Shown here: positions 18,190 through 42,690 of the stretch, in pieces
Position numbering within the stretch: position 1 is the stretch's first letter
Layout of the letters: every line of letters starts with the position of its first letter
Sequence record: LC765218.1
DNA length: 64,000 nt
From: Pseudomonas phage BRkr
Reading direction: 5' to 3' (one strand)
Notes under the pieces: generated by a model
Databases searched by the model: none
The model's input: the letters and a program-made list of their open reading frames with translations, nothing else
Told to the model about the DNA's origin: nothing
Made by a program: the position numbers and the translations under genes

Positions 18190-19656
18190 ATGGGTCTATA
18201 TGCTCAGGTTGTCAATCATGACGAGATGCTCGCTAACCAAAGAGGTAAAGTAGTATTCGCTAATGACTTTAATACCAGCAATGCTGAACAAAAGGAGGAA
18301 TTCCAACGTTATCTGTTCTCCCATTATCAGGATGCAGATGCGATCGAGAACTCAGCTTCGTGTGACTGTGAGCATATCACAGAAGCATACAAGCTTGGGG
18401 TAATCTGCGATAACTGCGGTACACCAGTAGTAAGCACGAGCAACCGACCCATCGTTCCATCGATGTGGATTCGGGCACCGGAAGGGGTGGATCGTCTGGT
18501 GAGTCCCGAGTTGTGGATTATGCTTTCAGGTTATATGTCGATGAAAGAATTCGACTTCCTGGAGTATCTGACCAACACCCAGTATCAGTACGATTACGAT
18601 ACGATCAGTTCGAAGGAAACAAAACGGAAACTTGACAAGTTGCTGGCTCGCCAGTTCCCGCGTGGACTGAACAACTTCGTTCAGAACTTCGATACGATCT
18701 TCCAGTTCTTGCTCGATAGCAGTATCATCAATACCAACAAAGGTGAGATGGCTGCATTCGTTAACCAGAATAAAGAACATCTGTTCCCGAAGAACATTCC
18801 GATCCCAACTAAACTCTGCTTCGTTGTAGAGTCTACGACCTCGGGTGTTTACATCGATAAGCCGATCGGCGCAGCAATCGATGCGGTACTGACTATTAGT
18901 AGTATCGGTAGTTCGGCAATTCCGCTGAAACCAATCACTGTACAAAACCGTGTAGCTCGTGCATTGAAGCTTCTAGCTATCTTCCACGAGAACTACGACA
19001 AACAACGAATTGCACAGAAACCCGGTTTGGTTCGTCGACATGTACTAGGTGGTCGTCTTAACCTGACTGCACGTGCAGTAATTACTTCTATCAGTGATCC
19101 GCATGATTACGATGAACTTCACATTCCGTGGGGTGTTGGTTGTCAGCTGTTGAAGTATCATCTGATCAACAAGCTCAAACGCAAATTCCGTATGACGACT
19201 CGCCAAGCGAACTCGTTCATTTACGAGAACGTTCTGAAGTACAACGAAGTCATCGATCAACTGTTCAAAGAGATCATCGCGGAATCGAAGTATAAGGGTC
19301 TTCCTTGTGTATTCCACCGCAACCCGACTCTGCAACGTGGTTCGACTCAACAGTTCTTCATCACCGTTATCAAGAATGACATTCGCGATAACTCAATCAG
19401 CATGTCGGTCCTCTGTCTTAAAGCTCCTAATGCTGATTTCGACGGCGATCAGTTGAATTTGACGTTGATGCCCGATAACTATCTGGCTGATGCAACTGAG
19501 CGAATCGCTCCGCATACTTGGGTACTAAGTCCTGATGATCCGCACGAGATCTCGGGTAACTTGGAACTACAAGGTCCGGTAGTAGAGACCATCATCAACT
19601 ATGCTCACGAGGACTATCTTCCGTCCTTGGAAGAATGGTTGGCGAAAGCAGCTTAA
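18190..19656 (+). CDS. multisubunit RNA polymerase beta-prime, N-terminal fragment
   Basis: N-terminal zinc finger (CDCEH...CDNCG), GGRLNLTARAVITS region resembling beta-prime RFSGRSVI, and the catalytic NADFDGD motif (KAPNADFDGDQLNL); 488 aa, ending shortly after the active site, as in split phage RNAPs. Confidence 0.85.
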   Translation: MGLYAQVVNHDEMLANQRGKVVFANDFNTSNAEQKEEFQRYLFSHYQDADAIENSASCDCEHITEAYKLGVICDNCGTPVVSTSNRPIVPSMWIRAPEGVDRLVSPELWIMLSGYMSMKEFDFLEYLTNTQYQYDYDTISSKETKRKLDKLLARQFPRGLNNFVQNFDTIFQFLLDSSIINTNKGEMAAFVNQNKEHLFPKNIPIPTKLCFVVESTTSGVYIDKPIGAAIDAVLTISSIGSSAIPLKPITVQNRVARALKLLAIFHENYDKQRIAQKPGLVRRHVLGGRLNLTARAVITSISDPHDYDELHIPWGVGCQLLKYHLINKLKRKFRMTTRQANSFIYENVLKYNEVIDQLFKEIIAESKYKGLPCVFHRNPTLQRGSTQQFFITVIKNDIRDNSISMSVLCLKAPNADFDGDQLNLTLMPDNYLADATERIAPHTWVLSPDDPHEISGNLELQGPVVETIINYAHEDYLPSLEEWLAKAA

Positions 19657-19676
19657 CGATCCAAGAGGAGTAATCC

Positions 19677-20291
19677 ATGTTACAACAGGCATACGGCGTC
19701 GATCTGATGGACATCGTCGCTGGTGGCCATCTGGATCAAAATACCACGAACTGGTTGGGTGAACGTTCTCAGACACTTCGTAGTAACCTGAGTTCGATGG
19801 CAACTTCGTTCTTCGATCAAGCACAAAATCTTTACCAGATGATCAGTACCAGCACAGCGGTACAGGCGATGCGGAACATTGTTGCTAAAACGGATAACAG
19901 TTGGATGTCTAACAACATTCATGGACTGTATACGTTAGAGCAATTGCAAACCGCAAATCCGATCATGCAACGATACATCATGGCACAAGAACGCCTGCGT
20001 GGTATGTATCTGAACAACATGGTTGAAGGTTATGCTGATTCGTATGTAAACCATCATGGTGATCGTGTTGGCGAACGCCATTACGATTATCGTCGTGTGA
20101 TGGACGAAGTACTGGTTGTCAATGATGACCACACCGTAGTCAAGCAGTTCTACGAAGAAATCCCAGAAGGTGATAAAGAGCTTTCTCTCTACGAGAAGGT
20201 TGATATTCTCCGTTCATGGAATCTTGTGAATGTTGCTCTAGATGAAAACGAAATGGATCCAACCAGTCCTGTAGGGAACTTGTTGGGTTAA
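19677..20291 (+). CDS. hypothetical protein
   Basis: 204 aa; AGAGGAG RBS; ends at a hairpin+TTTATAACG element. Confidence 0.55.
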   Translation: MLQQAYGVDLMDIVAGGHLDQNTTNWLGERSQTLRSNLSSMATSFFDQAQNLYQMISTSTAVQAMRNIVAKTDNSWMSNNIHGLYTLEQLQTANPIMQRYIMAQERLRGMYLNNMVEGYADSYVNHHGDRVGERHYDYRRVMDEVLVVNDDHTVVKQFYEEIPEGDKELSLYEKVDILRSWNLVNVALDENEMDPTSPVGNLLG

Positions 20292-20301
20292 CAACATAAA
20301 C

Positions 20302-20330
20302 GGAGTCCCTTAGGGGACTCCTTTATAACG
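20302..20330 (+). terminator. hairpin + CTTTATAACG element (aacataaa left flank)
   Basis: acaacataaac-ggagtccc-ttag-gggactcc-tttataacg. Confidence 0.5.
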
Positions 20331-20349
20331 AGGATATAAGGAATTTAGT

Positions 20350-20772
20350 ATGATCGAACCGGTGTCGTTTAAGGCCGATCCTAATAAAGCACGTCGCCCT
20401 ATTCTCGATAGTTACGCTCAAAAAATACAAGCTCAAAAAGGGCGTATGAATGTAGTAACTTACTGTGCCAATAACCCCGATAAGATGGTTAAGATACATC
20501 GCGACGGTAATAAATGGTATTGTTGTATTGAACGTGATGGCGTCGAAGTAATTGACAAAAATGAAATAATTGTCATGGGTCCCCCTGGATTCCCAGATAC
20601 GATTCAATTACAGATTTCCAATGACCCTAATGATAAAGTACATTTCGTGGAAATTCATGATGGTCGTATTTGGGAAGCAATCAACGCTATCGGTGGCGGC
20701 TATACCCGAAAAAGGATTGAGTTGCCATTCGGACATCCTTTCTTAGACTTCCTTTTCGTGGAGTCCGATTGA
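20350..20772 (+). CDS. hypothetical protein
   Basis: 140 aa; AAGGAA RBS. Confidence 0.5.
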   Translation: MIEPVSFKADPNKARRPILDSYAQKIQAQKGRMNVVTYCANNPDKMVKIHRDGNKWYCCIERDGVEVIDKNEIIVMGPPGFPDTIQLQISNDPNDKVHFVEIHDGRIWEAINAIGGGYTRKRIELPFGHPFLDFLFVESD

Positions 20773-20789
20773 GTCCAATGATGTAGTTA

Positions 20790-20832
20790 GCGGAGTCTTA
20801 GGACTCCGCATACTTTCCTATTATTTTTTTTT
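20790..20832 (+). terminator. rho-independent terminator
   Basis: gcggagtc-ttag-gactccgc, 11-nt spacer, then ttatttttttttt. Confidence 0.55.
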
Positions 20833-20841
20833 GGAGTTGCC

Positions 20842-21246
20842 ATGACAGTCTCTCTCCCAACACTAGGTACTGATGGTTGGATTACCTCAATGGAATCCAA
20901 AGCAGACTACATCATCTCTACTTTCCTTACAACAAATAGGTCCATGTCAACGTTACATAGGACACAAAATACTTCGCTTCAATATCTACTGAAGGAATAT
21001 GCTAACGATATCCTTAATCTGGAAATTCAGCTTCGTGATGTACTAACAAATAAACTACGAACCGTGTTTGGTGAATCAGCTCAGGCTTTGGTTAGTATTG
21101 TTCCAGCGAGTCCAGATAATCCGGATGCATTCTCCATTCAGTTTACAGGTATAGTCACTGATGGTACTAAAGAGTATACAGTGGGTAAACTGGTTCAATT
21201 CCAAAATTCACACATTGTGAATATTGCTAATATCAACAACGGGTAA
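20842..21246 (+). CDS. hypothetical protein
   Basis: 134 aa; GGAG RBS. Confidence 0.5.
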   Translation: MTVSLPTLGTDGWITSMESKADYIISTFLTTNRSMSTLHRTQNTSLQYLLKEYANDILNLEIQLRDVLTNKLRTVFGESAQALVSIVPASPDNPDAFSIQFTGIVTDGTKEYTVGKLVQFQNSHIVNIANINNG

Positions 21247-21250
21247 ATAT

Positions 21251-21841
21251 ATGTCGAATCTTGATTCTCAAATGGAAGAAGCACAGGTACTGGTCGATGG
21301 GGAATCAGATGTTAAATCTGCTCCTGACCTTAATGAAACAGATGCACTCATTCAACGAGTGGAACATCTTAATCGCACGGTAGAACGGCTGAGCGAAAGG
21401 CTTCATGTTTCTGAAAAGGCTATTAAACAAATTTTGGAAGCACTGACCCAATCGGAAGATCTACATGAACTCCGTGTCATTAAGATTCTCTCTAGTTTCT
21501 TTGGTGGGTTGAATAATAGCCTTCGTGAAAGTCTTGAGCATATGACTCAAGAAGTATCCACACGTCGTTATGGTTTTACTATTGAAGTTGTTGATGGTGT
21601 TAACGTAACGGCACACGAGAATAGTGTAATTGCAACCAAACGAGAAGATGGTGGTATTGATTTCGCATCTATTAATACCCCCGATCAAATCCAAAACCAT
21701 GGAACCGAACCATTCGTTCAATACCTGAAGCAACATGATGAACTGTTTGAAGGTCAGAATGCAATCGTCATTAATATCCTTGCTTCTAAAGATGCACTTG
21801 AAAAAGTACAAGGAGAATTGAATGAGCCAGTATCAAACTGA
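21251..21841 (+). CDS. hypothetical protein
   Basis: ORF 21224-21841 trimmed to ATG 21251, just after the upstream stop. Confidence 0.5.
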   Translation: MSNLDSQMEEAQVLVDGESDVKSAPDLNETDALIQRVEHLNRTVERLSERLHVSEKAIKQILEALTQSEDLHELRVIKILSSFFGGLNNSLRESLEHMTQEVSTRRYGFTIEVVDGVNVTAHENSVIATKREDGGIDFASINTPDQIQNHGTEPFVQYLKQHDELFEGQNAIVINILASKDALEKVQGELNEPVSN

Positions 21842-22433
21842 TACAGCTGAAGAAATCCGCGCACGTCATGTAACGCGTGGAATCGATGATTGTCTGAATA
21901 CAATCATCGCAAACGACGAGATGCAGTTGCCCATTATCCTGGAAGACAGGTTTGTGAAAGAGGTCTTACCCCTACTAGTAAGACCATGGGATACTGATAA
22001 CTTAACCCGTTATCGGAAATACGTACTAGAATTGACAAATCCTCTGCGTGTAGCTTCTAATGAAGCAGAGCCGAAGATTCTTTTTACGGTACCAGCTTTG
22101 TATCCCAGGCCAGCTACCTCATGGGCAGCCGATGCTACAACTGCATCTATTTCACATGTAGTAGATTACATTGCTATTGAACGTGAACGGTCTCTGCAAG
22201 ATCTTGAACCGTATATCACGGAATTCTTAAGTAGTGTATCTATTACTACAACCGTGGACAAAAGTGTTCTCATTCCTTTAGCTAACATCCTGGCGATGTA
22301 CAACCGCACTTTCGAAGATGAAAGTGGGAATCCATTGTACACCCTCGCCGGGGGTGTTCCCGTTAAAGGGTCTAATGGTAGTGTACGTCAACAGGCTGAT
22401 ACAAGCTCATTTGACGACGATTATGAAGACTGA
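21822..22433 (+). CDS. hypothetical protein
   Basis: 203 aa; AAGGAGAA RBS. Confidence 0.5.
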   Translation: MSQYQTDTAEEIRARHVTRGIDDCLNTIIANDEMQLPIILEDRFVKEVLPLLVRPWDTDNLTRYRKYVLELTNPLRVASNEAEPKILFTVPALYPRPATSWAADATTASISHVVDYIAIERERSLQDLEPYITEFLSSVSITTTVDKSVLIPLANILAMYNRTFEDESGNPLYTLAGGVPVKGSNGSVRQQADTSSFDDDYED

Positions 22434-23568
22434 TAAAACAAAGTTCCCCGGTACATTTCGATATATAAGCCTAGGTGATATTCACCTAGGTCATCGGACA
22501 ACTCCTACCTCTCATATTCTGTTAAACTTAGATAAAGTTATTACAGATAAGATGTTAAAGGAACTCGATATGGTCATTATTACTGGTGACCTATTCGACC
22601 GACAGCTTAACTACGGTGATGAATCTGTACATCAGATAAACCGTTGGGCAACAACGTTCATGATGCGCTGCGCTGCAAATAACGTGATGCTCAGAATAGT
22701 TGAAGGTACACCTAGCCATGATAGGGAACAAACCCAGTTCTTTGTAGAGCAAAAAGTAAACGTAAATATTCCAGTCGATCTCCATTACTCTAAGACACTG
22801 TCAATTGAGTATATTGAGAAGCTCGATGCACATTTTCTTTATGTCCCAGATAAATGGCATCCATCAACAGCTGTTACTTTATCGCAGGTAAAAGAACAGA
22901 TGGCTTCACTGGGCATAGAGAAGGTTGACTTTGCTATTATGCATGGTGCATTTAGTTATCAGCTACCTTCCATTGTAGAAGAACCAACTCACGATGAAGA
23001 AGAATACTTAGCTTTAGTAAAACATCAGATCTTAATTGGTCATGTCCACAACATGACTATTAATGATAGAATTTACGCAGCTGGTTCTTTCGATCGAATC
23101 TGTCATGGCGATGAGATCGATAAAGGGTTGTTTCATTTTATCGTTCGTGAGGATGGTAATTTCACGGCGACATTTATAAAGAACAAGAATGCTAAGAAGT
23201 ATGTTACTTTAGAAGTTCACGGTTATGATACTAAACAACTTCTTAATAAAGTAAAAGAAACCTTAGCAGAACTACCCAAGTATTCTGCTATACGACTGCG
23301 TTGTGACCCAATGGACGTAGCTAACGGCGATATCGAAACATTTCGAGTTGAGTATCCTAACTACGAATGGTCTGTCTTGGTGGAAAAAGCTACTAAGAAA
23401 AAGAATAGTGTAGCGACAAGTCTAAAAGAATTTGACATGTCTAAGTTTATCGCTATTACACCAGAGACAATTAGTGATCTTCTTAAAGAAGAGATTTCAA
23501 AAGTCACTGATGATCAGACCATACAAGTCCGTTGTCTTGAAAGGTTGGCACAGTTCGTTAGGAATTAA
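22423..23568 (+). CDS. Mre11/SbcD-like calcineurin-family metallophosphoesterase (putative recombination nuclease)
   Basis: Phosphoesterase motifs in order: GDIHLG (I), ITGDLFD (II), GTPSHD (III), AIMHGAF (IV), IGHVHN (V); start taken at ATG 22423 (MKTDKTK), overlapping the upstream stop. Confidence 0.65.
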   Translation: MKTDKTKFPGTFRYISLGDIHLGHRTTPTSHILLNLDKVITDKMLKELDMVIITGDLFDRQLNYGDESVHQINRWATTFMMRCAANNVMLRIVEGTPSHDREQTQFFVEQKVNVNIPVDLHYSKTLSIEYIEKLDAHFLYVPDKWHPSTAVTLSQVKEQMASLGIEKVDFAIMHGAFSYQLPSIVEEPTHDEEEYLALVKHQILIGHVHNMTINDRIYAAGSFDRICHGDEIDKGLFHFIVREDGNFTATFIKNKNAKKYVTLEVHGYDTKQLLNKVKETLAELPKYSAIRLRCDPMDVANGDIETFRVEYPNYEWSVLVEKATKKKNSVATSLKEFDMSKFIAITPETISDLLKEEISKVTDDQTIQVRCLERLAQFVRN

Positions 23569-23570
23569 AT

Positions 23571-24398
23571 ATGGAACTCATTGAAAGAGATGTCGGACAG
23601 CTTCCAGTTAGTATCGGTACTTCTCTTGCCTTTGAGGGATTCTTAGGAATTCACCCGAATCAACCTAAGCATCCGATTGACGTTAAATCGGTAAAAGAGA
23701 TATGGGTCAATCTTCGAACATTGGCCCGTAATCTTAATTCAGCTGTAGCTACGGATAAAGTCCATGGCATTAATCCAGCTGATGCTGTTACAATCCTAAT
23801 GCAGGAAATACAGACAATTCCGGTTGCACTGGGGCAACATGGATCGAAAGTCAAGGTGCGTTGGTATATCGCATCTAAAGACGCGGTCAAGTGGGAATAC
23901 CCCAAGGCTATTTATAAAGAAGCCAAAACGCCAAAACAAATGGCATATGAAGTATACGAACGTTACGCGGCAATTGAACTTCTGCATCAAATGAAAGATG
24001 CAGGAATAGAAGTGATGGAGATCGATAAAGCTCCAGTAAGGACCCAAGGTACGATCGCTTTGGTTACCCATTTTCCACATGAGCTATTGTGGAAACAATA
24101 TTTCGATCGTCTTCTTTTGTTGGAATCCCACACTGGGAAAATAAAACCGTACAACTTGTGGTACACCAAGCTTAACGGCATAAAAGAGGATACGCCCATC
24201 CCATTCACTAAATTCACTCTACAAGTGTTTGGCGATAGCGTTGTTTTCGATGCACAACCAAAAGCTATTAAGGCCCAACTGAAACAGTTAGCTGCTTCGA
24301 GACGTTGGTCGCCTGTAACTACACAAGACAAAATCTATCATGACATTACAACTCATGGCAGTAAAGAACTTAAAGAATGTTACGCGCTATTACGCTGA
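23571..24398 (+). CDS. hypothetical protein
   Basis: 275 aa; AGGAA RBS; no Rad50/SbcC Walker A motif seen. Confidence 0.55.
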   Translation: MELIERDVGQLPVSIGTSLAFEGFLGIHPNQPKHPIDVKSVKEIWVNLRTLARNLNSAVATDKVHGINPADAVTILMQEIQTIPVALGQHGSKVKVRWYIASKDAVKWEYPKAIYKEAKTPKQMAYEVYERYAAIELLHQMKDAGIEVMEIDKAPVRTQGTIALVTHFPHELLWKQYFDRLLLLESHTGKIKPYNLWYTKLNGIKEDTPIPFTKFTLQVFGDSVVFDAQPKAIKAQLKQLAASRRWSPVTTQDKIYHDITTHGSKELKECYALLR

Positions 24399-24483
24399 TT
24401 AGAAAGAATACTCTTCATCGATATAGTACGTAGAAACACTTTCGCGAAGTGTAAAAAATTAATCCAATTGGAGCTAACACATC

Positions 24484-25230
24484 ATGTCTCAACAATCCCA
24501 AGGCCCTGCCCTCTCTCCGTTCTCTGTAATGTCCACTTGGCTACATGCTGATCCGGTAGAAGGTTCTCAGAAACGTCCTAACCTGCGTTTCGGTGTCTTT
24601 GGTAACGTACCTCGCCTGACCGTACGTACTAACGTTCAAGGTGATCTGAATAACGGTAAGATTGAATTCAAAACTGACCTGGCTACTTTTGCAGCTGCAA
24701 TGAAGTATGCACGGGATCTTGTCGATGGTAAAGATGTTCCTCAAGAACGTAAGTTTGTTCACCAAGATGACTTTGTTGGCGGTAAAAAGATCGATAAGAT
24801 CATTCCGATCACCACACTGGTAATCGGCCGCGAACAGAACTCTGGTCGTATTTACATTGCTCTTATCTCTTCTCAGCAACAGCGCCCGCGTATTCGGTTC
24901 TTCTTCGGTCCGTCGAAATATCACACCATCCTGAATGGTGATGGTTCCCCCATCTCTCCGAAAGAGATGTCCGAAGCTTACGCTACCGGTTTCCTGGAAC
25001 CGGCCACTGCAATCATTTACCAGATGATGGTAAGCAGTTTTGACCAGAACGCTAAGAACGTAGCCAACCCAGCTAACTTTGGTAACGGTGGCGGCGGTGG
25101 TCAACGTCAAGGTGGCTATAATGGCGGCAACCGTGGTGGTAATAGCGGTGGTGCTCCTCAAGGTTACAATCGTCCGTCCTCCGGTGGTTTCCAGGACAAT
25201 GGCTTTGACGATTCCATTCCTGACTTCTAA
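24484..25230 (+). CDS. single-stranded DNA-binding-like protein (Gly/Asn/Gln-rich linker, acidic C-terminal tip DDSIPDF)
   Basis: C-terminus GGGGGQRQGGYNGGNRGG...FDDSIPDF mirrors the SSB tail (E. coli ends DFDDDIPF); N-terminal 170 aa not recognisably a classical OB fold by eye; host-like codon usage; followed by a 12-bp stem-loop. Confidence 0.5.
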   Translation: MSQQSQGPALSPFSVMSTWLHADPVEGSQKRPNLRFGVFGNVPRLTVRTNVQGDLNNGKIEFKTDLATFAAAMKYARDLVDGKDVPQERKFVHQDDFVGGKKIDKIIPITTLVIGREQNSGRIYIALISSQQQRPRIRFFFGPSKYHTILNGDGSPISPKEMSEAYATGFLEPATAIIYQMMVSSFDQNAKNVANPANFGNGGGGGQRQGGYNGGNRGGNSGGAPQGYNRPSSGGFQDNGFDDSIPDF

Positions 25231-25237
25231 ATAAATC

Positions 25238-25274
25238 TACAGCATCTCTTTGGTAAACACCGAGAGATGCTGTA
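25238..25274 (+). terminator. 12-bp stem-loop after the SSB-like gene
   Basis: tacagcatctct / agagatgctgta with a 13-nt loop; no strong U-tract. Confidence 0.35.
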
Positions 25275-25310
25275 TGCCCTCTATTTCCTGACATTAAAAA
25301 ATATCTCAGA

Positions 25311-25320
25311 TCTATATTAC
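25311..25320 (+). promoter_or_regulatory. early-promoter-like motif TCTATATTAC
   Basis: aaaaaatatctcagaTCTATATTACaactgtg, 33 nt upstream of ATG 25353. Confidence 0.5.
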
Positions 25321-25352
25321 AACTGTGCATCACCAGAACTAAAGAGGTATAA

Positions 25353-26930
25353 ATGCGCATCGACGTTACTGGGGTACAAGGCAACGGCTTTGTGGAAGTA
25401 ACCACTAGCCATAAAGGAAACGAAATCAAGTGGAGTACAAGGGCTTATAGCAAAGTAAAACTCAATGATCCAACTCGTGTTTTCAAGGAATTTAATGATT
25501 ACCTAGAAAGCTGCGATGAGGCTGATCAAGATCGTATCTGGAACAGCTATGTCAAAATCAACGATCTGTTCAAGATGGACTTCGAACCGGCGCACATCTC
25601 CAGTACGCTGATCCATTACATCCATGAACTGTACTCAGCTCTGCCAATGAACAAACTCCGTCGTTGGCTGTTGACTATTGGTAATCTGCATATTCCACCA
25701 GAGATCCAGAAAACGATCACTGATGAATCGCGCTACACCAAGCGTGAGCAGACTTATCTTCAACATGACTACATCAACCTCGCTACTGTGGCACTTGGTC
25801 TTCGACCGATGGTTCCGATTTGGGGAGAATACATTGATTCGGGTACGGATCAAGAACTCCACAAAGAAAACGAAGTTGTTGGTTTGATTAGCCGTTGTGA
25901 AATTGCTAACTGGCCGCTACTTGAAAAAGATGAAGTGGGTGAAGATGTAGATACTGCATTTGACAAACTGGAAGGGTACGTCAAATTCTGCGTTGAAGAT
26001 GAACCGACTACTTTGGGTAGCCTTTGGCGTGGTATGAGTTCAGTTGAAATTCCAGTACATCTTCGTTCGAAGGTTCTGGTTCGCCGACTGACAATCGTTC
26101 CTCTGAACGATCCAATGTCCCACTCTATCGTAGCTAACACGTTCCGTTACGTACGTAGCAATCTCAATCCTGCCGAGCGTAGTCCAACTGATCGCGTTAA
26201 TGAAAAGCGTCCAGAAGGCGGCGGTGGTGACGACGAAGATAAAACTTCGTTTATTGAGGCACACAAGACGAAAGGTCGAGTTAGCCCAGGTGACATTGAG
26301 GCATACAACATCGATGCGATGGATTATGAGCTACTGGCACAAACGGTAGATCCTACTATCGACATGGAGAAACTGAGAAAATGTATTAGTTGCGTGAGTC
26401 AGGTCGCGAACTTTGAGATCCGTCCTCACCAAGTACTACTGGCACAATGGGTAATGGCAAAAGCTTTCCCGGCGCGTGCTTTCTATCATATCTCCAAACT
26501 GCCAGTCAATACACTGTTGGCAACTACCCAGGCTCTACTGTGGCATTGGGGTTACCTTGATGTAGCTGTGTTCCTACAAGTCGAACCTGTTTATCACGGT
26601 GAACATGGATCGACTAATCAGCTTAGTAATACCCGAAGTGGTTCGAGAATTGCTCAGAAGTATAAGGCACAGCTCGATGAACTCTATCCGCATATGAAAC
26701 TCGCTAAGGTCCCCCAATCGGGAGAGATTCCTAAGCCAGATAACATGGCGGGTATTGCAGTGAATAACTGTAACCAGTCCATCCGCTCCTCTACTTGGAT
26801 CTATCATGGTCCACCTGAGCTGTTCAAGCTTTCTGGACAGATTGCTCAGAACAACATTCTGATTCCACCTCCAAATATCAAGCACACGATCACCGAAGTG
26901 GTTCTACACCTCGCTCAGATCAACCAGTAA
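25353..26930 (+). CDS. hypothetical protein
   Basis: 525 aa; AGAGG RBS; promoter-like motif 25311-25320; first gene of a block ending with the RNAP beta and beta-prime parts. Confidence 0.6.
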   Translation: MRIDVTGVQGNGFVEVTTSHKGNEIKWSTRAYSKVKLNDPTRVFKEFNDYLESCDEADQDRIWNSYVKINDLFKMDFEPAHISSTLIHYIHELYSALPMNKLRRWLLTIGNLHIPPEIQKTITDESRYTKREQTYLQHDYINLATVALGLRPMVPIWGEYIDSGTDQELHKENEVVGLISRCEIANWPLLEKDEVGEDVDTAFDKLEGYVKFCVEDEPTTLGSLWRGMSSVEIPVHLRSKVLVRRLTIVPLNDPMSHSIVANTFRYVRSNLNPAERSPTDRVNEKRPEGGGGDDEDKTSFIEAHKTKGRVSPGDIEAYNIDAMDYELLAQTVDPTIDMEKLRKCISCVSQVANFEIRPHQVLLAQWVMAKAFPARAFYHISKLPVNTLLATTQALLWHWGYLDVAVFLQVEPVYHGEHGSTNQLSNTRSGSRIAQKYKAQLDELYPHMKLAKVPQSGEIPKPDNMAGIAVNNCNQSIRSSTWIYHGPPELFKLSGQIAQNNILIPPPNIKHTITEVVLHLAQINQ

Positions 26931-26949
26931 AATTCAAGAGGTAAATTAC

Positions 26950-28584
26950 ATGCACGGAATCAACATGGGCATTTCCGCTGGTGCAGCTGTCAACTCGAAG
27001 TTGTCCGTACAGAACTTTGTTCTGGTGGAAACCGGCACCTATCAAGAACAGCACATTCGACCTTTCTCGATTAATGCTAACCAAGAAGTAGCTCGTCAAC
27101 TGGAACAAGCTACAAATGGTGGCATGAACCTTCGGGTAAGTGCTGTACAAGAAGTAGCTTCTTCGGTTATCACTCCCCAAGCATCGGTAGAAGGTAGTGT
27201 CGGTATTGCACATGGCTGGCGTTCTCGCCGGTTCCGCTTCTTGATGAAAGTGAATGAGCAACATCCATTCATTGCGGGAACGCTGACTCAACGTATCTTC
27301 TTTGGCTATAGTGACCACGCTGATGCATCTCAGAATTATCTGCCGGATGACATGCGTATCTACTTCAACTCCGAAACTATCATTGCTCAAGCTATTCAAC
27401 AAACCATTCATGGTCCCCAACACGTTGCATCGATCGTAGGTTCCAACCAGATCGTTTCTCCTGTTGACATGATGGGTGGAATGAATGGAATGTTCTCTCG
27501 TGCAACTGCTCACCTGATCCGTCCTGAAGATATCTTTAGTATTGGTCAAACAGCGCATGTGGCACAGAAACTGCAAAGCTCTGGTTTGTTTGACGGAATG
27601 ATCAATCGGTCCATCGACCATCGCACGATGGTTGGTGAAGGAGGAGCATACAAGTATAGCCAACGTCGAGATACCTCTCCAACTCGTTATCTGTCGAATA
27701 CTCTTGGCGCATACCAACATGCTGTCAAAGAGAATGCAATGGAGAACCAAGGGGATGATCTGTTCGGGGCTCCTGATAAAGATGTAATGTTTGGTGAAGC
27801 TGCTGCCCAGTGCAGGAATCAGCAGATCCATACTAACACCTTCTTGGCTGTTCTTAAAGATCATGCCGGGTATATGGAGAATGGCTATATCACTTTCCGT
27901 GATCTCAAGCGGCTCTTCCCTGAATGCGGCACCCAACAGGTTACTCAGTTCTCCATGAACGATGGCCGTTCAATCCGTCGTATTTCTCAGGCAGAAGACT
28001 CCGAAGTTTGGAGCGGTGCAGACTATACCTCCATTGGTGCAAGTCTGTTGGCACAGACCATTCCGTCGATCATGATGGATACCTTCCTCCGCACTTGCTC
28101 GTTTGCTGTAACTAATGGTACTGGTCCGAATAACTATTCGTTCGAGTTCCATCCGCAGAACTCTAAGGCTATCATTGATAACCTGGACATGCGTCAATAC
28201 ATTCTGGAATTCGAACGCCGCCTGGCTATCGATATCCTGAACAACATCACCCGTGGTAACCAGCTGCCGTTCCGTATCTCGATGCATTCGGACTTGGCTG
28301 GTGACTCGATCATCGATATTGCCATCGGTGGTCAGTCGCTGACTCGTTTCATTGCACCGACCTTTACGGATAGTCTGTTCTCCCCGATGATTACCCGTAA
28401 CGAGCAACACCCGACTAACCTGTCTGGTGATATGCTGTGGCTGGTACAAGAAGTAATTCCCAATCCGACTCAACATCAGGCTCTTCAGTCTGTCGGTTAC
28501 CAACATCCGGTAGCTGCACCCATCATGATGCCTAACGCTATTAACCAAGGAGCAAGCAATGTCGTTGATCTTGGACTCGTATAA
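26950..28584 (+). CDS. hypothetical protein
   Basis: 544 aa; AGAGGT RBS; host-like codon usage. Confidence 0.6.
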   Translation: MHGINMGISAGAAVNSKLSVQNFVLVETGTYQEQHIRPFSINANQEVARQLEQATNGGMNLRVSAVQEVASSVITPQASVEGSVGIAHGWRSRRFRFLMKVNEQHPFIAGTLTQRIFFGYSDHADASQNYLPDDMRIYFNSETIIAQAIQQTIHGPQHVASIVGSNQIVSPVDMMGGMNGMFSRATAHLIRPEDIFSIGQTAHVAQKLQSSGLFDGMINRSIDHRTMVGEGGAYKYSQRRDTSPTRYLSNTLGAYQHAVKENAMENQGDDLFGAPDKDVMFGEAAAQCRNQQIHTNTFLAVLKDHAGYMENGYITFRDLKRLFPECGTQQVTQFSMNDGRSIRRISQAEDSEVWSGADYTSIGASLLAQTIPSIMMDTFLRTCSFAVTNGTGPNNYSFEFHPQNSKAIIDNLDMRQYILEFERRLAIDILNNITRGNQLPFRISMHSDLAGDSIIDIAIGGQSLTRFIAPTFTDSLFSPMITRNEQHPTNLSGDMLWLVQEVIPNPTQHQALQSVGYQHPVAAPIMMPNAINQGASNVVDLGLV

Positions 28585-29878
28585 GTCTGTACTCCCCTCG
28601 TTCGCCTGCGAGTTCGATGAAGAAGGTTATATCAGCCTCCGCAATCCGGTAGGTACTGCTTCTCCTTCGACCGTAGACGGTAAACGTCTTGTAATCCCAA
28701 CCGATAAGTTCCTTCGCAAGGGATTCGGTGAAGACTTCCAGCCGTTCCACCCGCTGAGTGAAGCATTGAGTCGCCGGGGTACTTCCCCGGTGATTCAGTA
28801 TCTGCAACGCGCAGCAAAAGCACACATTAGTTTCGTCGTCCACAAAATGGCCGAACAACTTCTGACCATCGCAGCGGACAAGTCGTCCCACAAGGACCTG
28901 CCACCGGATGCAACTGACTTCCTGAAGAAACTGGCAGATGCGGATAAAGCAACTGTCGGTCTGTTCGAGAAACTGATGCCTGCTGCTACTAAGAAGAACC
29001 GACTGGTTGCAGTTTACTTGAAGAATGGCGGTACTTTCGATGGTAAGAAAGTAAACCGTATGGCGATCATTCGCTTCCCGATCCTGGAAGATCTTCAGGC
29101 TGAAACTGATGATGTTCTTGGTATCAAGATGGCGAAGAAACAACGTAAGGTTCTCACTGCGCTGTTCAAACTGATCGTTCCGTTTGGTGACAATCCGGAA
29201 GAGTATGCCTTTGGTACTACCAGCCGTGTTGCACCTTATTACACCAGTCTTCTGACAGCGTATCACAAAGTAATCGTGATGCTCAATCAGCTGATTAACC
29301 GGTACGCGATCCCACTGCAAATCCCCGTCAATCTTATTCCTGTGTTTGATCTGGATCTGATCGACGAGTTCCCGAAGATCTATAACCTTATCCCTCCGCT
29401 GAATGGCAACCTCGGTGGTCGTGATGAGGATACTCCGGAAACTGCCGAAGCTGTACAAACCCAGCAACAAGCACCGAGCGTTACTGCTCCACAAGCCAGT
29501 ACTCCTCAGCTGACTCGTCCCGCCGCAGTTGTTAGCAAACCTGTAGAAAAAGATACTGTCTCCATGAGCGAATTCATGGCCGCACAGAATCCCCAACCGC
29601 AGATGATGCAGCAGCAAATGGGAATGATGATGCCGATGAATAACGGCATGATGATGCCAGGCAATGGCATGATGCAGATGAATGGCATGGGTGGGATGAT
29701 GCAACCTATGCAAATGGGTAACATGCAGCCCCAGGGTATCCAAGCGAACGCACCCATTCCCGCGTGGATGGGTGGCCAACAACAGGGCACGATGATGATG
29801 GGTAACGGTCAACCGGCTAACCCGTACATGCAGGCTGTGGCTGGCATGCGTCAAACCAATGGTCTTGGATTGGTGTAA
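28559..29878 (+). CDS. hypothetical protein with a C-terminal Met/Gln/Gly/Asn-rich low-complexity tail
   Basis: 439 aa; AAGGAG RBS; last ~110 aa are MMQQQMGMMMPMNNGMMMPGNGMMQMNGMGGMMQPMQMGNMQPQG... Confidence 0.6.
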   Translation: MSLILDSYKSVLPSFACEFDEEGYISLRNPVGTASPSTVDGKRLVIPTDKFLRKGFGEDFQPFHPLSEALSRRGTSPVIQYLQRAAKAHISFVVHKMAEQLLTIAADKSSHKDLPPDATDFLKKLADADKATVGLFEKLMPAATKKNRLVAVYLKNGGTFDGKKVNRMAIIRFPILEDLQAETDDVLGIKMAKKQRKVLTALFKLIVPFGDNPEEYAFGTTSRVAPYYTSLLTAYHKVIVMLNQLINRYAIPLQIPVNLIPVFDLDLIDEFPKIYNLIPPLNGNLGGRDEDTPETAEAVQTQQQAPSVTAPQASTPQLTRPAAVVSKPVEKDTVSMSEFMAAQNPQPQMMQQQMGMMMPMNNGMMMPGNGMMQMNGMGGMMQPMQMGNMQPQGIQANAPIPAWMGGQQQGTMMMGNGQPANPYMQAVAGMRQTNGLGLV

Positions 29879-29888
29879 GACGGCATAA

Positions 29889-29914
29889 AGCAGGGGGCCT
29901 TAGGGTCCCCTGCT
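29889..29914. terminator. bidirectional hairpin between convergent genes (gacggcataaag flank)
   Basis: gacggcataaa-gcaggggg-ccttagggt-cccctgc-tgttgctttaaaatttt. Confidence 0.6.
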
Positions 29915-29920
29915 GTTGCT

Positions 29921-30283: not shown

Positions 30284-30314
30284 AGAGGAATCCTACAAAA
30301 AAATAATTTTCACA

Positions 30315-32468: not shown

Positions 32469-32494
32469 CCGGGCTGCATGCCAAGAGGTAAATA

Positions 32495-34468
32495 ATGAAT
32501 CAGTATAAAGCACGTGATCTTCTCAATATGAGTTACGATGAACTCTGGGCGATTCCAAGTGAATGGCATGAGATCATCTTTGATGACGGGGAGAAACTCT
32601 ATGCAAAAGATCGGATCACCAAGCTGTCGGTTCTGCTCTGGTATCCACTGAAAGCTTTCCCTGATGCCCCGGTTCTGAAAGATTACCATCTGGCATCTAC
32701 TCGGGTTACCTCTAAATCTCTTGTGAAATACCTTAACAAAGTTATTTGGGGTATTCATGCATGGAGTGGTGAACAGATCGATCCAGAGGTTTTGGCTAAA
32801 CTGGCTATTGAAGGAAAGAATTGGCTTTATAATGAAACCACGACTCGACTGAGTGCTTACATTGCAACCCTGTCGATCTTTGACATTATGGAAGTGTACA
32901 ATCACCCGGCAGTTAGAAAGGCTAACCAAGATGTACAACCTACTACGTACGGGATTGAAAACATTTCTTACGGGATGATCAAAGAAGCATTCAACGACGA
33001 AACACAGTTCCGTGGTAACAGCATCATTGAGGGCCTGCGCTCGGGTACGCAGAAAATGGAGCAATTGCTTCAGGCATACGGACCACGTGGTTTCCCGACA
33101 GACATTAACTCTGATATTTTCAGTGAGCCGTGTACCACTGGTTACATTGATGGTATTTGGGGTTTGTATGAAAACATGATCGAATCCCGATCGGGTACCA
33201 AAGCTCTGTTGTATAACAAAGAGCTACTGCGTGTAACCGAGTATTTCAACCGGAAGTCTCAGTTGATTGCTCAGTATGTACAGAACCTACACACTGGTGA
33301 TTGTAATGGTCACTTGATCGACTTCCCTGTAATGCAGGGTACGTTGAAAGCTCTTCGTGGCAAGTACTATCTGAACGAACAGACAGGTCAACTGGACTGG
33401 CTGAAAGGGGATGAGAAACATCTTATCGGTAAAAAGATTAAGATGCGTTCTATTTTGGGATGTGTGCATCCGGATCCTCAGGGTGTATGTTCGCGGTGTT
33501 ATGGGCGACTAAGTTTCTCTATTCCAAAAGGAACTGTCATTGGTCAGGTATCGGCTGTATCCATGGGTGACAAAATCACTTCTGCGGTATTGTCGACAAA
33601 ACACACTGATGCAACCTCGGCTGTAGAACAGTATCAGATTGGTGGCGTCGAAGCTAAGTACCTGCGAACTGGATCTGCGGCTGAAACTCTTTATCTGAAG
33701 AAAGAACTCTCGGGTAAAGGTTTCCGCTTGATGATCGGTCGTAACGAAGCCCAGAACCTGGCTGATATTCTGATGATCGATGACCTTAGTGCATATCCAG
33801 CACCGAGTGCTTCTGAACTGACCCGTATTGGTTTGGTACGGACGGTTGATGGAGTAGACGAAGGCGATGTATTGACGGTGTCGCTGTATAACCGTCGAGC
33901 TAGTCTATCGACTGAAATGCTGCAACATATCAAACGTGTACGTTGGGAACTTGACGCTCGTGATAATATCGTGATCGATATGGCCGGGTTTGACTTTGCC
34001 CTGCCGTTCCTGACGTTGCCTAATAAGCACGTAAACATGTACGAAGTGATGAAGCGTATTCAGTCATTCCTGCACTCTGGTAGTGATACTGAAGGGTCTA
34101 AACTGAGCTCAGATAAGGTAGGTTTTACTAGCAAGACTTATCTTAAGAACTACAAAGACCCAGTTGATGCTTTGGCAGCCACTGTGTCGCTGTTGAATGA
34201 GAAGTTCTCTTTGAATGCCGTTCACTGTGAGGTTCTGGTTTATGCTATGATGGTGCGCTCTATCGCTGAACGCGATTATCGTCTGCCTAAGCCGGGTATT
34301 ACGGGTCAGTTTGAAAAATACAACAAACTGATGATGTCCCGTTCTCTTGCTGGTGCGATGTCGTTTGAGAAGCAACATGAGCCGTTGAACAATCCTGGCA
34401 GTTTCCTCTACACACTGAGGAATGACCATCCCTACGATCTTGCGGTCATGGGAGGTAAGCTGCTCTAA
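32495..34468 (+). CDS. multisubunit RNA polymerase beta-prime, C-terminal fragment
   Basis: GCVHPDPQGVCSRCYGRLSF...GTVIGQVSAVSMGDKITSAVLSTKH resembles the E. coli beta-prime Zn-II/trigger-loop region GVCAHCYGRDLARG...[31 protein letters not shown] RBS; immediately follows the beta part. Confidence 0.7.
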   Translation: MNQYKARDLLNMSYDELWAIPSEWHEIIFDDGEKLYAKDRITKLSVLLWYPLKAFPDAPVLKDYHLASTRVTSKSLVKYLNKVIWGIHAWSGEQIDPEVLAKLAIEGKNWLYNETTTRLSAYIATLSIFDIMEVYNHPAVRKANQDVQPTTYGIENISYGMIKEAFNDETQFRGNSIIEGLRSGTQKMEQLLQAYGPRGFPTDINSDIFSEPCTTGYIDGIWGLYENMIESRSGTKALLYNKELLRVTEYFNRKSQLIAQYVQNLHTGDCNGHLIDFPVMQGTLKALRGKYYLNEQTGQLDWLKGDEKHLIGKKIKMRSILGCVHPDPQGVCSRCYGRLSFSIPKGTVIGQVSAVSMGDKITSAVLSTKHTDATSAVEQYQIGGVEAKYLRTGSAAETLYLKKELSGKGFRLMIGRNEAQNLADILMIDDLSAYPAPSASELTRIGLVRTVDGVDEGDVLTVSLYNRRASLSTEMLQHIKRVRWELDARDNIVIDMAGFDFALPFLTLPNKHVNMYEVMKRIQSFLHSGSDTEGSKLSSDKVGFTSKTYLKNYKDPVDALAATVSLLNEKFSLNAVHCEVLVYAMMVRSIAERDYRLPKPGITGQFEKYNKLMMSRSLAGAMSFEKQHEPLNNPGSFLYTLRNDHPYDLAVMGGKLL

Positions 34469-34483
34469 GATGGAGGTCGAGGT

Positions 34484-34524
34484 AGGGAGGGCTTTGGCTC
34501 TCCCTTTCCCCTCGTTAATTTTTT
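34484..34524 (+). terminator. imperfect hairpin + T-run after the RNAP beta-prime C gene
   Basis: agggagggc-tttg-gctctccct then ttcccctcgttaattttttATG. Confidence 0.5.
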
Positions 34525-36059
34525 ATGCTACCGATACTCAAGGCTGAGCGCTATACGCATGGTGTCCGACTATCTGGGTATACTCGGGAAACGTTCGCTA
34601 AGATGCAGGGGTTTCTTGAAGGGCTTTCTTTGAAAGAACCTAAGAAAATCCCTGGTAATCGAATCATCATGGAACTCAAGAAAAAGTACTATGGTTGTTT
34701 CGAAGATCTATCAGAGACTTATATCCACCGAAATTCACTAGAAGACCTGATCGGTTATCTGGAGAACAAAGGTATCCCAAGAGAACGAGTCGAGATTGAG
34801 GATATCCCTGTCCCTAAAGCAGCAACTGCTGTTTACGAAATGTACGAGAAATACGTACTCCGGGATTATCAGGAAATCATCCGTGAAGATATTTTGCGTG
34901 ATTGGTTACATTCTGCACGGGTAGACTTGCAAACGGGAAAGGGAAAACCCTCACGAGCCTAGCGTCCTTGGCTTCGATGGGGGTAAGATGTGTTGTGATG
35001 GTTCCTCCCAAGTATTTTGGTATTTGGATTGAGGCTCTTCAGAACACTTACAAGGACATTGCCCAGAGATACATTACCATCTCGGGTTCCGCAGAACTCC
35101 AAAAACTAATAGATCGCGGCGTCGAAAACGATCTTGAAGGGATTGACGTTATTGTAATCTCTTCTACTACCTACCGGGCATATCTAGATAACTTTGAGAA
35201 GTATGGTAACCGACTCCATGAGCTCGGATACAATGTACCTCCACCCCGGTTCCACGAAGCAATACAAGCAGGACTGCAAATTAACGACGAGATTCAAGAA
35301 GATCCAGGACTAACCTTCCGTATCGATATTTACTCTAACATTAATAAGCAGATCTATTTGTCGGCTACTCCCTACACAGGGAACGCCTACGTGACGAAGA
35401 TGATTGACAAGATGTTGCCAGCAGAGACCATGTGTCGCCTGCCCAACTACGATGTCTACATCAACTGCATGGGGCTACTCTACACTGAACCAAAGATCAA
35501 ACCGAAGGATTATCTTACACCGTTTAAGAATACGTATAACCATGCGCGTTACGAAACGGTAATGATGAAAGATCCTAAACGGATGGATGACTATTTCAGG
35601 ATGGTCGGTCGTATTGCTGAGGGCGTGTATGTGAAAGATCGGTTACCTGGTCAGAAACTACTCCTCCTTTGTGCAACGGTCGCCTTTATTGAAAAACTGG
35701 TTAAATATCTGAAGACTAAGTTCCCTGACCTTGTGGTTAACGGACATGTCTCAGGTTGCAGTTATGAACAGTTACTTAAGAACGACATTACGGTGTCCAC
35801 TATTAAGTCATCTGGTACAGGTGTAGACATCCCTAATCTTCGTGAGGTAGTATTGTTACAAGCTACCGATTCCAAGAAAGATAACATTCAAATTCTGGGT
35901 CGTCTCCGTAAACTGAAAGACTTCCAAGATGTGGTACCTAGGTTGACCTACCTAGTGTGTGAAAACATACCGCACCACGTGAGATATGCTCGGAATAAAA
36001 GTGAGCATTTCGCCGGTAAAACTCTTTCAATGGTACTCAGACGGATAGCCATGCACTAA
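34525..36059 (+). CDS. SF2 (UvsW/DEAD-like) helicase, interrupted by a -1 frame change inside Walker A (ORFs 34525-34962 and 34902-36059)
   Basis: Frame 1 gives ...LRDYQEIIREDILRDWLHSARVDLQTGKGK then stops; the -1 frame continues TLTSLASLA..., restoring a textbook motif I (TGKGKT). Downstream motifs: SAT (YLSATPYTG), QxxGRxxR (IQILGRLRK). The second ORF has no ATG/RBS of its own (TTG artefact start). The junction is at G_GGA_AAA_C (34941-34948). Confidence 0.6.
34941..34948 (+). other. frame-change site inside the helicase gene: slippery-type heptamer G_GGA_AAA in an A4 run
   Basis: 0-frame codons aag gga aaa ccc; a -1 shift (or a fifth A) continues as acc ctc acg = TLT and restores Walker A. 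Confidence 0.55.
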
Positions 36060-39776: not shown

Positions 39777-39787
39777 TTTGTATTACC

Positions 39788-40450: not shown

Positions 40451-40508
40451 GAAGACATACCTGCAACATAACCGTATGTTAGATATTCATTTATACAGGA
40501 TAATTCCA

Positions 40509-41360
40509 ATGAAAGAAATGCTAGATAGTATCCTCACTCCCCTAGTGATGGAAGAACGAAAAGAAATCATGCTTGAATGCGTAGCTTCCCTAGAGGAAAT
40601 GGATTACTCGGCAGCTCTTGATGAACTGCATACCGTTTGCTCTATTGCTGATGACAATGCAGACACTATGATGTTGCTTGGCCGTATCGACGATATTATC
40701 CGTGTGGCCCATGATCAGGTTCTAGCTGCACACGAAGTTAAAGTATCGGATGAGGCGACACAAGAGCAACGGCTTGCAATTGTCCATACTATTTTAGGTT
40801 TGCCAAATTATATTCTTCCTGACCAGATTGAGTTGATTCTACAAGGCGATTTCGATAATGAGGAAATTCTTGCTCATCTGGTACCTATGTTTGAACGCCT
40901 TTCTTTCGACGAAGTGTGGCCTTTAATTAATGAAGTATCTGTTTCTTTCATCGATGCTTTAAAAGCGATGGTGCAAGACACTATGATGACGCGTGGTCAC
41001 ATCGACGAATACATCGCTCCTGTATCCCGTATCCGTGTTCTTAATCGATTGATGAATACCATAGGTCGAGATAAGTTTAGTATGGTTCTCGAACTGTCTA
41101 ATTCTGGTATGCGAGTCGGACATGACTGGTTAGAACTCCTTTCTAATAGTCTTGAAAGCCTGGACAATAAGAACGCTCAAGATGCGGCTTATGAAATGGT
41201 AGGTCTTGCATTCTTCTCTAATCTTCACCTCGATAGTATCTATAGCACTGTTAAAGTTTCTATCGATGAATACACAGAGAACGAGATGGAACGTAATATC
41301 ATGGAACGGGTGATCGACGAGATCAAGCGTAAAATGGGAAAGCTCTATGAAACTGCGTGA
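40509..41360 (+). CDS. hypothetical protein
   Basis: ORF 40476-41360 trimmed to ATG 40509 (AGGA RBS). Upstream CACATATTAC motif at 40441-40450. Confidence 0.5.
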   Translation: MKEMLDSILTPLVMEERKEIMLECVASLEEMDYSAALDELHTVCSIADDNADTMMLLGRIDDIIRVAHDQVLAAHEVKVSDEATQEQRLAIVHTILGLPNYILPDQIELILQGDFDNEEILAHLVPMFERLSFDEVWPLINEVSVSFIDALKAMVQDTMMTRGHIDEYIAPVSRIRVLNRLMNTIGRDKFSMVLELSNSGMRVGHDWLELLSNSLESLDNKNAQDAAYEMVGLAFFSNLHLDSIYSTVKVSIDEYTENEMERNIMERVIDEIKRKMGKLYETA

Positions 41361-42690
41361 TTATTTCCTTTTAGGAATTAAAGCTGGTCTATGTAAAAAA
41401 CGTGCATGGATGAACAGTCTGTTCAACATCGTTTATAATAACGATGATATTCCTAACATGCCTTATAAGCCACATTTTGGTGAAGGCCGAATGTGGTTCT
41501 ACATGCCGAATGGCGATGAGAAAATTTTCATCGATGATTACATCGAAGGTCGAGCTCCTTTACACTTCCGTGATGAATTCATTTTACAACCGGGTGAAAT
41601 AGAAAACTACAAAGGTACTGAACCGTTACGTACTACGTATGGTAATGTATTCGTTAACTACCTCTGTCTGGTCCTTCCGTTCGGGGATATCTTCCCATTT
41701 CAGACAGGATATTTCTCACCTGCTAAAATTGAGAATGAGCTGCTAGATAGACTGATTGACGACCGTGAAGATGGTAACGTCACTGAACGAGCACCGGATG
41801 GTAAGATCTACGTTTGGCAATATCTAATGTTTGCGGATCATTGTCTAGCTATTCCCGCTTACGCAGATAGCCTTGTTACTTCTGTTACACGTAAATCGAT
41901 GACTGCTCACCCAGACAGAGATAAAGTACGTACAGCTCTTTTGGAACAATATAAAGATCAATTAACTGACCCAGCTATTGTTGCAAAAATAGGTAACGAA
42001 CTTATTAAGATGGATGAAGAGTATCTATCTGACGATGAGTCGTATGAGTTCTATGATGCAAAACATGCTAAGCTATTCGGCGGTGTTCGTAAGAAAGTTC
42101 ACTATCTATTTGGTGGTGAATCTCCGTTCTCGGATGGTACGTCGGTTGAACTTATCTCTAAGTCACTTGAAGAAGGCATTGATACAGATCACATGCCTGT
42201 GATGAACAACTCTCTTCGTTATGGTTCTTATAACCGTGGTGCTCAGACTGCATTGGGTGGCGAGTCCACCAAGACTATTTATCGAATGGTCGGTACAGTC
42301 CGAATTATAGAACCTGACTGTAAAACACATATTGGTGTTCCAACGCGAGTAGATAAGTTTAATGCTAAAGAACTCGTTGGTTACACTATGGTTAAGGATG
42401 GAGAATCCATTCTTATTACCTCTGAAAACATTGATGGACTCATGGGTCAAATTATCGATGTACGCGGTCCAATGACGTGTAAGTCTGGACGTGACATTGA
42501 AAAGGGTATCCTTGGACGAGATAAGAATATCTGTGCTACTTGTGCGGGTAAAGCTCTTGCTGAGAACCCCAACGGTATTCCTGCTGCGGCAGCTGGTGTG
42601 GGTGGACGCTTCTTGAGTATCTTCATGTCGAAGATGCACAGTGCTACTCTGAAGACTGTTAAATGGGACCCGGTCCGTCGTCTTTCTTAA
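41347..42690 (+). CDS. second RNA polymerase beta-prime-like segment (bridge helix + Zn-II, ending at the start of the trigger loop)
   Basis: [24 protein letters not shown] resembles the bridge helix [86 protein letters not shown] parallels VRSVVSC...GVCAHCYGRDLARG...[25 protein letters not shown]. Distinct from 32495-34468, implying a second RNAP set. Confidence 0.6.
   Translation: [447 protein letters not shown]

Follow-up and report, generated by a model that had tools for sequence, protein, structure and literature searches.

We analysed a 64,000-nucleotide (nt) stretch of DNA from Pseudomonas phage BRkr (LC765218.1; hereafter the window) for its genes encoding split β and β' subunits of multisubunit RNA polymerase (RNAP). 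Judged from the sequence, the phage almost certainly encodes two separate multisubunit RNAPs built from split β/β' homologues, a virion enzyme (vRNAP) and a non-virion enzyme (nvRNAP), in the manner of phiKZ. Of the five nvRNAP genes, four (β' N-terminal, σ-like, β C-terminal and β' C-terminal) were identified in the window by homology, as was one of the five vRNAP genes, which encodes a gp80-like middle piece of β' (Mid-β'). The original prediction had recognized four RNAP pieces between positions 18190 and 42690 and had assigned two different β' C-type genes among them to two enzymes, one a virion and one a non-virion RNAP. All four pieces were confirmed, and the two-enzyme proposal was supported, because the two genes are orthologues of phiKZ gp74 and gp80 and the remaining subunits are encoded by the relative PA1C. 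A further RNAP gene in the same range had been missed: 25353–26930 is an orthologue of phiKZ gp68, so that the range holds five RNAP genes rather than four. The five genes, with the evidence used for each, are as follows.

18190–19656, + strand: nvRNAP β' N-terminal subunit, phiKZ gp55 (+gp56.1) orthologue (phmmer, Pfam, motifs)
25353–26930, + strand: nvRNAP fifth subunit, phiKZ gp68 orthologue (phmmer, tblastn)
30357–32468, + strand: nvRNAP β C-terminal subunit, phiKZ gp71/73 orthologue (phmmer, Pfam, motifs)
32495–34468, + strand: nvRNAP β' C-terminal subunit, phiKZ gp74 orthologue (phmmer, alignment)
41347–42690, + strand: vRNAP Mid-β' subunit, phiKZ gp80 orthologue (identity, PHROG, profile, fold)

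The RNAP region 30357–34468 (4.1 kb) was 99.8% identical to that of Pseudomonas phage PA1C and 99.5–99.7% identical to those of PS119XW, phiLBG22, phiHQ and HHBS36_1, and the part of the window compared (10352–64000) aligned to PA1C at 99.6–99.7%. The gp80-like protein was 100% identical to one from phage BRkr. The source is a member of the Pawinskivirus group (PA1C/PS119XW) of the Chimalliviridae, nucleus-forming phiKZ-like jumbo phages of Pseudomonas aeruginosa. All four open reading frames (ORFs) of the original prediction were present at the coordinates given there, on the + strand, and PHROGs placed them in RNAP families with E values of 1e-157 to 1e-230. A Pfam search gave no match for the gp74-, gp80- or gp68-like proteins, and the PA1C record labels its gp80-, gp68-, gp69- and gp67-like genes 'hypothetical protein' only, with a note naming PHIKZ068 in the gp68-like entry.

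Three of the nvRNAP subunits carry the motifs that the original prediction had read from them, and each matched a chain of the phiKZ enzyme (7OGP). The product of 18190–19656 matched 7ogp_A over residues 1–485 (phmmer, E 1.8e-239) and Pfam RNA_pol_Rpb1_2 (E 5.7e-10). It is a β' N-terminal piece with a zinc finger (C58-x-C60...C73-x2-C76, nt 18361–18417) and the catalytic NADFDGD at residues 414–420 (nt 19429–19449), ending after the catalytic double-psi β-barrel; residues 58–86 and 274–424 aligned with E. coli β' 70–98 and 331–468 respectively. The product of 30357–32468 matched 7ogp_C over residues 9–701 (phmmer, E 0) and Pfam RNA_pol_Rpb2_6 (E 3.3e-6). This β C-terminal piece has the conserved active-site lysine motif, with HGGKGVVCKI at residue 394 (nt 31536–31565), DMP at 408 and GRIYEHGFGAAS at 434, and its residues 383–454 aligned with E. 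coli β 1061–1130. The product of 32495–34468 matched 7ogp_D over residues 1–656 (phmmer, E 0) and the corresponding chain of the AR9 nvRNAP, 7s00_D (E 4e-13). It is a β' C-terminal piece with bridge helix, zinc site (CSRCYGR at residue 332, nt 33488–33508) and trigger loop (GTVIGQVSAVSMG at 346); residues 313–375 aligned with E. coli β' 878–941, including H936, and the first trigger helix carries His370. In phiKZ gp74 an insertion domain of 138 residues (396–533) lies in the trigger loop where E. coli has SI3 (PMC7618050), and by homology the gp74-like protein should contain the same domain.

The fourth nvRNAP gene, 25353–26930, encodes the fifth, σ-like embedded subunit of the gp68 family, with a match to 7ogp_B over residues 1–525 (phmmer, E 4.4e-204) and 57% identity to phiKZ gp68 (tblastn). 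The gp55-, gp71/73- and gp74-like proteins were 65–71% identical to their phiKZ counterparts (tblastn). In phiKZ, gp68 is σ-like, embedded in the core and required for assembly and promoter binding (PMC8287921), and ΦKZ055 and ΦKZ068 are both essential (PMC12571901).

Compared with the phiKZ nvRNAP (PDB 7OGP, 7OGR, 8QUE and 9RJS), four of the five subunits are thus present here as full-length orthologues of 57–71% identity, with the same catalytic and zinc motifs and with genes in identical order among identical neighbours (chmA, Imp6, PicA/Imp1 and a gp70-like gene). The two phages differ in gene continuity. Whereas phiKZ gp55 is interrupted after the 'KAPN' of NADFDGD, where an intron/HNH gene (gp56) lies, and gp71/73 is interrupted after the 'FHGG' of HGGKGV, where the gp72 ORF lies, both genes are continuous in the window. 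The fifth gene of the phiKZ enzyme has its gp123-like counterpart outside the window. The AR9 nvRNAP (PDB 7S00, 7S01, 7UM0 and 7UM1) shares the split β/β' architecture, and the gp55-, gp71/73- and gp74-like proteins have sequence matches to it, yet it is very distant in sequence, is without the β' N-terminal zinc domain seen here, and needs uracil in DNA for promoter recognition (PMC7618050). In the literature, the cyanobacterial split β' (γ/β') is divided at the same site, after the catalytic double-psi β-barrel (PMC7598289), but the phage enzymes also split β, are without α and ω, and in the virion enzyme have β' cut again inside the trigger loop.

We then considered the second β' C-type gene, 41347–42690, which the original prediction had described as a different β' middle segment that breaks off where the trigger loop begins. 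Its product was 70.4% identical to phiKZ gp80 (phiKZ 75025–76371) and of equal length, and it matched PHROG 2962 (E 8.9e-157) with a cross-match to the gp74 family (E 8.7e-8); the gp80 family is conserved at full length across 302 phage records. As a single sequence the protein gave no match in Pfam or PDB searches, and a family profile and structure prediction were therefore needed. A profile of 29 homologues matched phiKZ gp74 (E 1.9e-4) and bacterial β' residues 748–904 (E 1.4e-3), and was aligned to E. coli β' 751–904 in register over the bridge helix and zinc site, so that the profile searches found an RpoC-like protein. An AlphaFold (AF2) model of the gp80-like protein had a mean predicted local distance difference test score (pLDDT) of 77.5. 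The best 50 Foldseek matches listed for this model were almost all RNAP β'/β'-C chains (E 2.4e-9 to 5e-7), with the AR9 nvRNAP β' C chain as the best (E 2.4e-9) followed by bacterial and plastid β'.

The gp80-like protein has a bridge-helix-like peptide at residue 298 (nt 42238–42300) and CATCAGK at residue 396, and the 33 invariant columns of the family include four zinc-site cysteine residues (C325, C378, C396 and C399) and H431. In the direct alignment C325 falls on E. coli C814, and by the profile C378, C396 and C399 correspond to C888/C895/C898 of the second zinc site. H431 (nt 42637–42639) lines up, via His370 of the gp74-like protein, with the trigger-loop H936 of E. coli β', and the protein, which carries the first trigger helix, stops 16 residues further on, in agreement with the end point given in the original prediction. 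We infer that the virion β' has a second break, inside the trigger loop, at the insertion site of the nvRNAP β' C-terminal piece and of E. coli β' (SI3); such a break would account for the 'middle'-fragment appearance of the gp80-like protein. This label is in keeping with the N-/Mid-/C-β' scheme published for virion RNAPs (PMC7598289, PMC5105663). According to a review, the virion core consists of at least five polypeptides, N-β', Mid-β', C-β', N-β and C-β (PMC7598289); the missing C-β' was identified genetically in SPN3US as gp244, with phiKZ gp176 as its homologue (PMC5105663), which leaves the gp80-like protein, a member of the gp80/SPN3US gp42 family, as Mid-β'.

The gp80-like gene has orthologues of phiKZ head and virion proteins around it (neighbours gp79 and gp81). 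Its first 14 nt (41347–41360, + strand) are shared with the end of the gp79-like head-protein gene, exactly as in phiKZ, which suggests coupled expression. By analogy, the gp80-like protein would be carried in the capsid and enter the cell with the DNA. Two neighbours were considered for further roles and rejected. The gp79-like protein was a candidate vRNAP partner in view of the conserved overlap, but the proteins reported to co-purify with gp180 do not include gp79 (PMC10612078). The gp81-like ORF 42753–44183 was a candidate for the missing β' C-terminus, but it has no RpoC similarity and this role belongs to gp176/SPN3US gp244 (PMC5105663).

In phiKZ, the vRNAP consists of gp178, gp149, gp180 and gp80, and the nvRNAP of gp55, gp68, gp71-73, gp74 and gp123 (PMC8287921); gp178, gp80 and gp149 co-immunoprecipitate with gp180, and gp80 is found in virions (PMC10612078). 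With gp176 added to the virion set, the window has one of its five genes, the gp80-like gene being 70% identical, of the same length, with the same overlap and the same gp81-like neighbour; against the SPN3US counterpart (gp241, gp218, gp240, gp42 and gp244) it again holds one of five. No gp123-, gp149-, gp176-, gp178- or gp180-like gene was found within the window, a tblastn search with phiKZ proteins being used for the gp123-like β N-terminal gene. All five are present in PA1C: a gp123 orthologue at 118893–120518 (70% identity to gp123), gp149-like at 153265–153903, gp176-like at 180291–181013, and gp178-like and gp180-like at 182980–187341 and 187344–188996 respectively. The last two are adjacent in PA1C, without the gp179-like gene that separates them in phiKZ. 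Since PA1C has all of the remaining subunits of both enzymes, two coherent RNAP sets very probably exist.

By analogy with phiKZ, a packaged virion enzyme would enter with the DNA and transcribe early genes from AT-rich promoters, and these early genes would include the nuclear-shell gene and the nvRNAP genes. The non-virion enzyme would then transcribe middle and late genes within the phage nucleus; the vRNAP genes would be among its targets, and their products would be packaged into progeny. This cascade is inferred from phiKZ experiments, homology being what is shown here, but the window itself lends it some support through the early-promoter-like motif described below and through the virion-gene surroundings of the gp80-like gene. 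The use of AT-rich early promoters by vRNAP is described in PMC10914365, and rifampicin-resistant, host-independent middle and late transcription inside the phage nucleus is known for phiKZ only (PMC8287921, PMC10612078).

Upstream regions of the window contain a shared motif that resembles an early promoter.

15836–15861, + strand: early-promoter-like motif (A-run + ATCTATATAA), 71 nt upstream of the chmA-like start
25294–25319, + strand: early-promoter-like motif, 34 nt upstream of the gp68-like start
30298–30323, + strand: early-promoter-like motif, 34 nt upstream of the gp71/73-like start

In its form A-run + ATCTATAT(A/T)A, the motif has exactly three copies in the 64 kb against 0.42 expected, all of them intergenic and on the + strand. 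The orthologous phiKZ sites have the same motif or one with a single mismatch, namely ATTTATATTA at chmA (L002 1566–1575, in the numbering of the phiKZ locus), ATCTATATTA 35 nt before gp68 (L002 13982–13991) and ATCTATATCA upstream of gp70.1/gp71 (L002 19061–19070). An early-promoter primary transcription start site (pTSS) is reported for PHIKZ054 (PMC8244752). The shared motif is probably an early promoter for the virion RNAP; the copy at 30298–30323 would serve the gp71/73-like and gp74-like gene pair, and the copy at 15836–15861 is the likely source of the transcript that must also reach the gp55-like gene. The gp55-like gene has no early-promoter-like motif of its own, nor does the gp79/gp80-like pair, and a k-mer enrichment search for promoter motifs gave nothing useful. 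The GC content at third codon positions (GC3) was 0.42–0.55 in the early/nvRNAP genes and 0.35–0.39 in the gp79-, gp80- and gp81-like virion genes.

Several points weigh against the two-polymerase explanation or the scheme built on it. Direct similarity between the gp80-like and gp74-like proteins is weak (BLASTP E 0.02), and for this reason the paralogy of the two β' C-type proteins rests on profile and fold evidence. The five genes absent from the window were located in the near-identical PA1C only and not in the window's own source, and all functional statements for this phage are carried over from phiKZ, SPN3US and AR9. Inspection of the upstream regions by eye revealed the promoter motif, which has three exact copies only, and three of 100 shuffles also reached three matches, position not yet being counted. 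Nothing in the window sequence contradicted the explanation.

The weak pairwise similarity, together with the absence of everything past the first trigger helix from the gp80-like protein, could also be read as a sign that the phage has a single functional RNAP and that 41347–42690 is a decaying or redundant β' C-terminal duplicate without an enzyme of its own. A decaying duplicate would hardly be full-length and conserved in 302 phage records with 33 invariant columns that include the four zinc-site cysteine residues and the trigger-loop histidine. In addition, PA1C encodes four partner pieces, among them a gp176-like C-β' that supplies the missing C-terminus, and phiKZ gp80 co-immunoprecipitates with gp178, gp149 and gp180 and is present in virions (PMC10612078). 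We regard a single enzyme as very improbable and, effectively, as already refuted. It is even harder to credit that 41347–42690 encodes a head structural protein unrelated to RNAP whose bridge-helix and zinc motifs arose by chance, although the gene stands amid virion genes, PA1C labels it a hypothetical protein, and the protein is without a Pfam match or a single-sequence PDB match. The family profile matches gp74 and bacterial β' in register over the bridge helix and zinc site, the PHROG cross-match leads to the gp74 family, and almost all of the best 50 Foldseek matches listed are β' chains.

The original prediction had also put forward 25353–26930 and 26950–28584 as the missing β N-terminal parts, on the sole grounds of ORF size and position upstream of the β C-terminal gene. 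This proved wrong: 25353–26930 matches the gp68 chain over its full length, a chain that is σ-like and not β-like (PMC8287921), and 26950–28584 (+ strand) is 49% identical to phiKZ gp69 (tblastn), the nuclear-import factor PicA/Imp1 (PMC11087766; bioRxiv 10.1101/2024.03.27.586873). Neither ORF matched Pfam or, meaningfully, E. coli RpoB (phmmer), and no RpoB/RpoC similarity was found for these two or for 24484–25230 with Pfam or with phmmer to E. coli RpoB/RpoC. The gp123 orthologue is located elsewhere in PA1C. The chance that either ORF is a β N-terminal part is negligible.

Between the chmA-like and gp55-like genes lies a conserved spacer.

17798–18189, + strand: structured non-coding spacer, 392 nt (identity, fold, covariation)

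The spacer is approximately 84% identical to that of phiKZ, whereas the coding genes compared, including both flanking ones, have 57–68% DNA identity and the other spacers compared have 45–63%. Its insertions and deletions are not multiples of three. Relative to shuffled sequences, its fold was strongly strand-specific, with z = −4.9 on the + strand and z = −1.3 on the − strand. RNAalifold gave 14 pairs with compensatory changes across three genera. Among nine distinct sequences, the 71 pairs common to the minimum-free-energy folds of the window and phiKZ spacers were 99.2% paired, and five pairs had double changes. No shuffle reached the observed covariation score, in a test whose power is limited because the sequences are closely related. 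The spacer ends in an invariant hairpin followed by T7 (~18128–18165). A CUCCU in the terminator tail (18166–18192, + strand) can pair with the gp55-like Shine–Dalgarno sequence AGGAAG, and this pairing is retained in phiKZ (AGGAG) and PhiPA3 (GGAGG); it may represent translational masking in read-through transcripts.

The element is single-copy and is present in Phikzvirus, in the PA1C group and, with insertions, in PhiPA3. It is absent from four relatives (L013–L015 and L019) whose gp55 is closer to that of the window and whose spacers are unrelated. Rfam gathering and E-value searches returned no family, only terminator-hairpin noise, and neither pattern scans of viral, metagenome and genome collections nor plasmid BLAST found it beyond known phages. 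Most records leave the spacer unannotated and a few have short hypothetical ORFs annotated across it. Term searches of the available parts of two phiKZ transcriptome papers, with the supplementary non-coding RNA (ncRNA) tables outside their scope, found no mention of it, and the element may already be among the phiKZ ncRNA candidates. Because the gp55-like gene has no early motif, it probably depends on read-through of the spacer from the chmA promoter. It is possible, although we consider it doubtful, that the spacer is a functional RNA, either an attenuator/processing module or a stand-alone ncRNA, which couples the shell protein to nvRNAP or sets their ratio and is specific to the P. aeruginosa jumbo phages.

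Two terminator-like hairpins were also recorded.

29889–29914, + strand: strong terminator-like hairpin downstream of the gp70-like gene, 8 of its 11 pairs being G-C
42696–42718, + strand: terminator-like hairpin directly after the gp80-like stop codon

The former divides the gp67-70-like block from the gp71/73-74-like block. The chimallin gene (chmA, nuclear shell, gp54-like; 15932–17797, + strand) has a GC content of 0.55 and a GC3 of 0.62, compared with a window GC of 0.44. Sites resembling σ70-type promoters were depleted in 15500–35400 (15 against 32.5 ± 6.7 in shuffles), which is consistent with independence from the host RNAP, a σ70 scan being irrelevant to these phage polymerases themselves.

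The nuclear-import orthologues are interleaved with the nvRNAP genes: in addition to the PicA/Imp1-like gene, ORF 24484–25230 (+ strand) is an orthologue of phiKZ gp67/Imp6 (53% identity). A C-terminal ...LGLV is common to the gp69-like and gp70-like proteins (VVDLGLV at 28564–28584 and TNGLGLV at 29858–29878), whereas their phiKZ orthologues end in FQVL and GRLL, and the gp70-like protein has a long low-complexity tail rich in Q, M and G. The gp75-like helicase (34489–36059, + strand) is read in two frames, in contrast with the single 537-residue ORF of phiKZ, and PA1C also annotates two coding sequences (CDS); the two parts overlap near 34926–34947 at an A/G-rich run, GGGAAAGGGAAAACCC. A frameshift, a gene that is truly split, or a sequencing artefact that the records share could account for this.

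Phages of the phiKZ-like kind have been known since the mid-2010s to have a two-polymerase system, and the structure of the non-virion enzyme has been determined by cryo-EM. The arrangement found here is thus known biology, the well-described phiKZ arrangement, in a phage group already in GenBank, and its value as a discovery is small. Public annotation of the group is incomplete, as the gp80-, gp68- and gp69-like genes of PA1C are without functional names. The spacer is the only part here that may be undescribed, and this conserved, structured sequence is the only element that might repay an experiment. For the polymerases themselves, the exact spliced protein sequences on either side of both phiKZ insertion sites can be read from the gp55-like and gp71/73-like genes, which are uninterrupted here, and a virion β' cut again at the point of the trigger-loop insertion would mark a site that tolerates both insertions and breaks.

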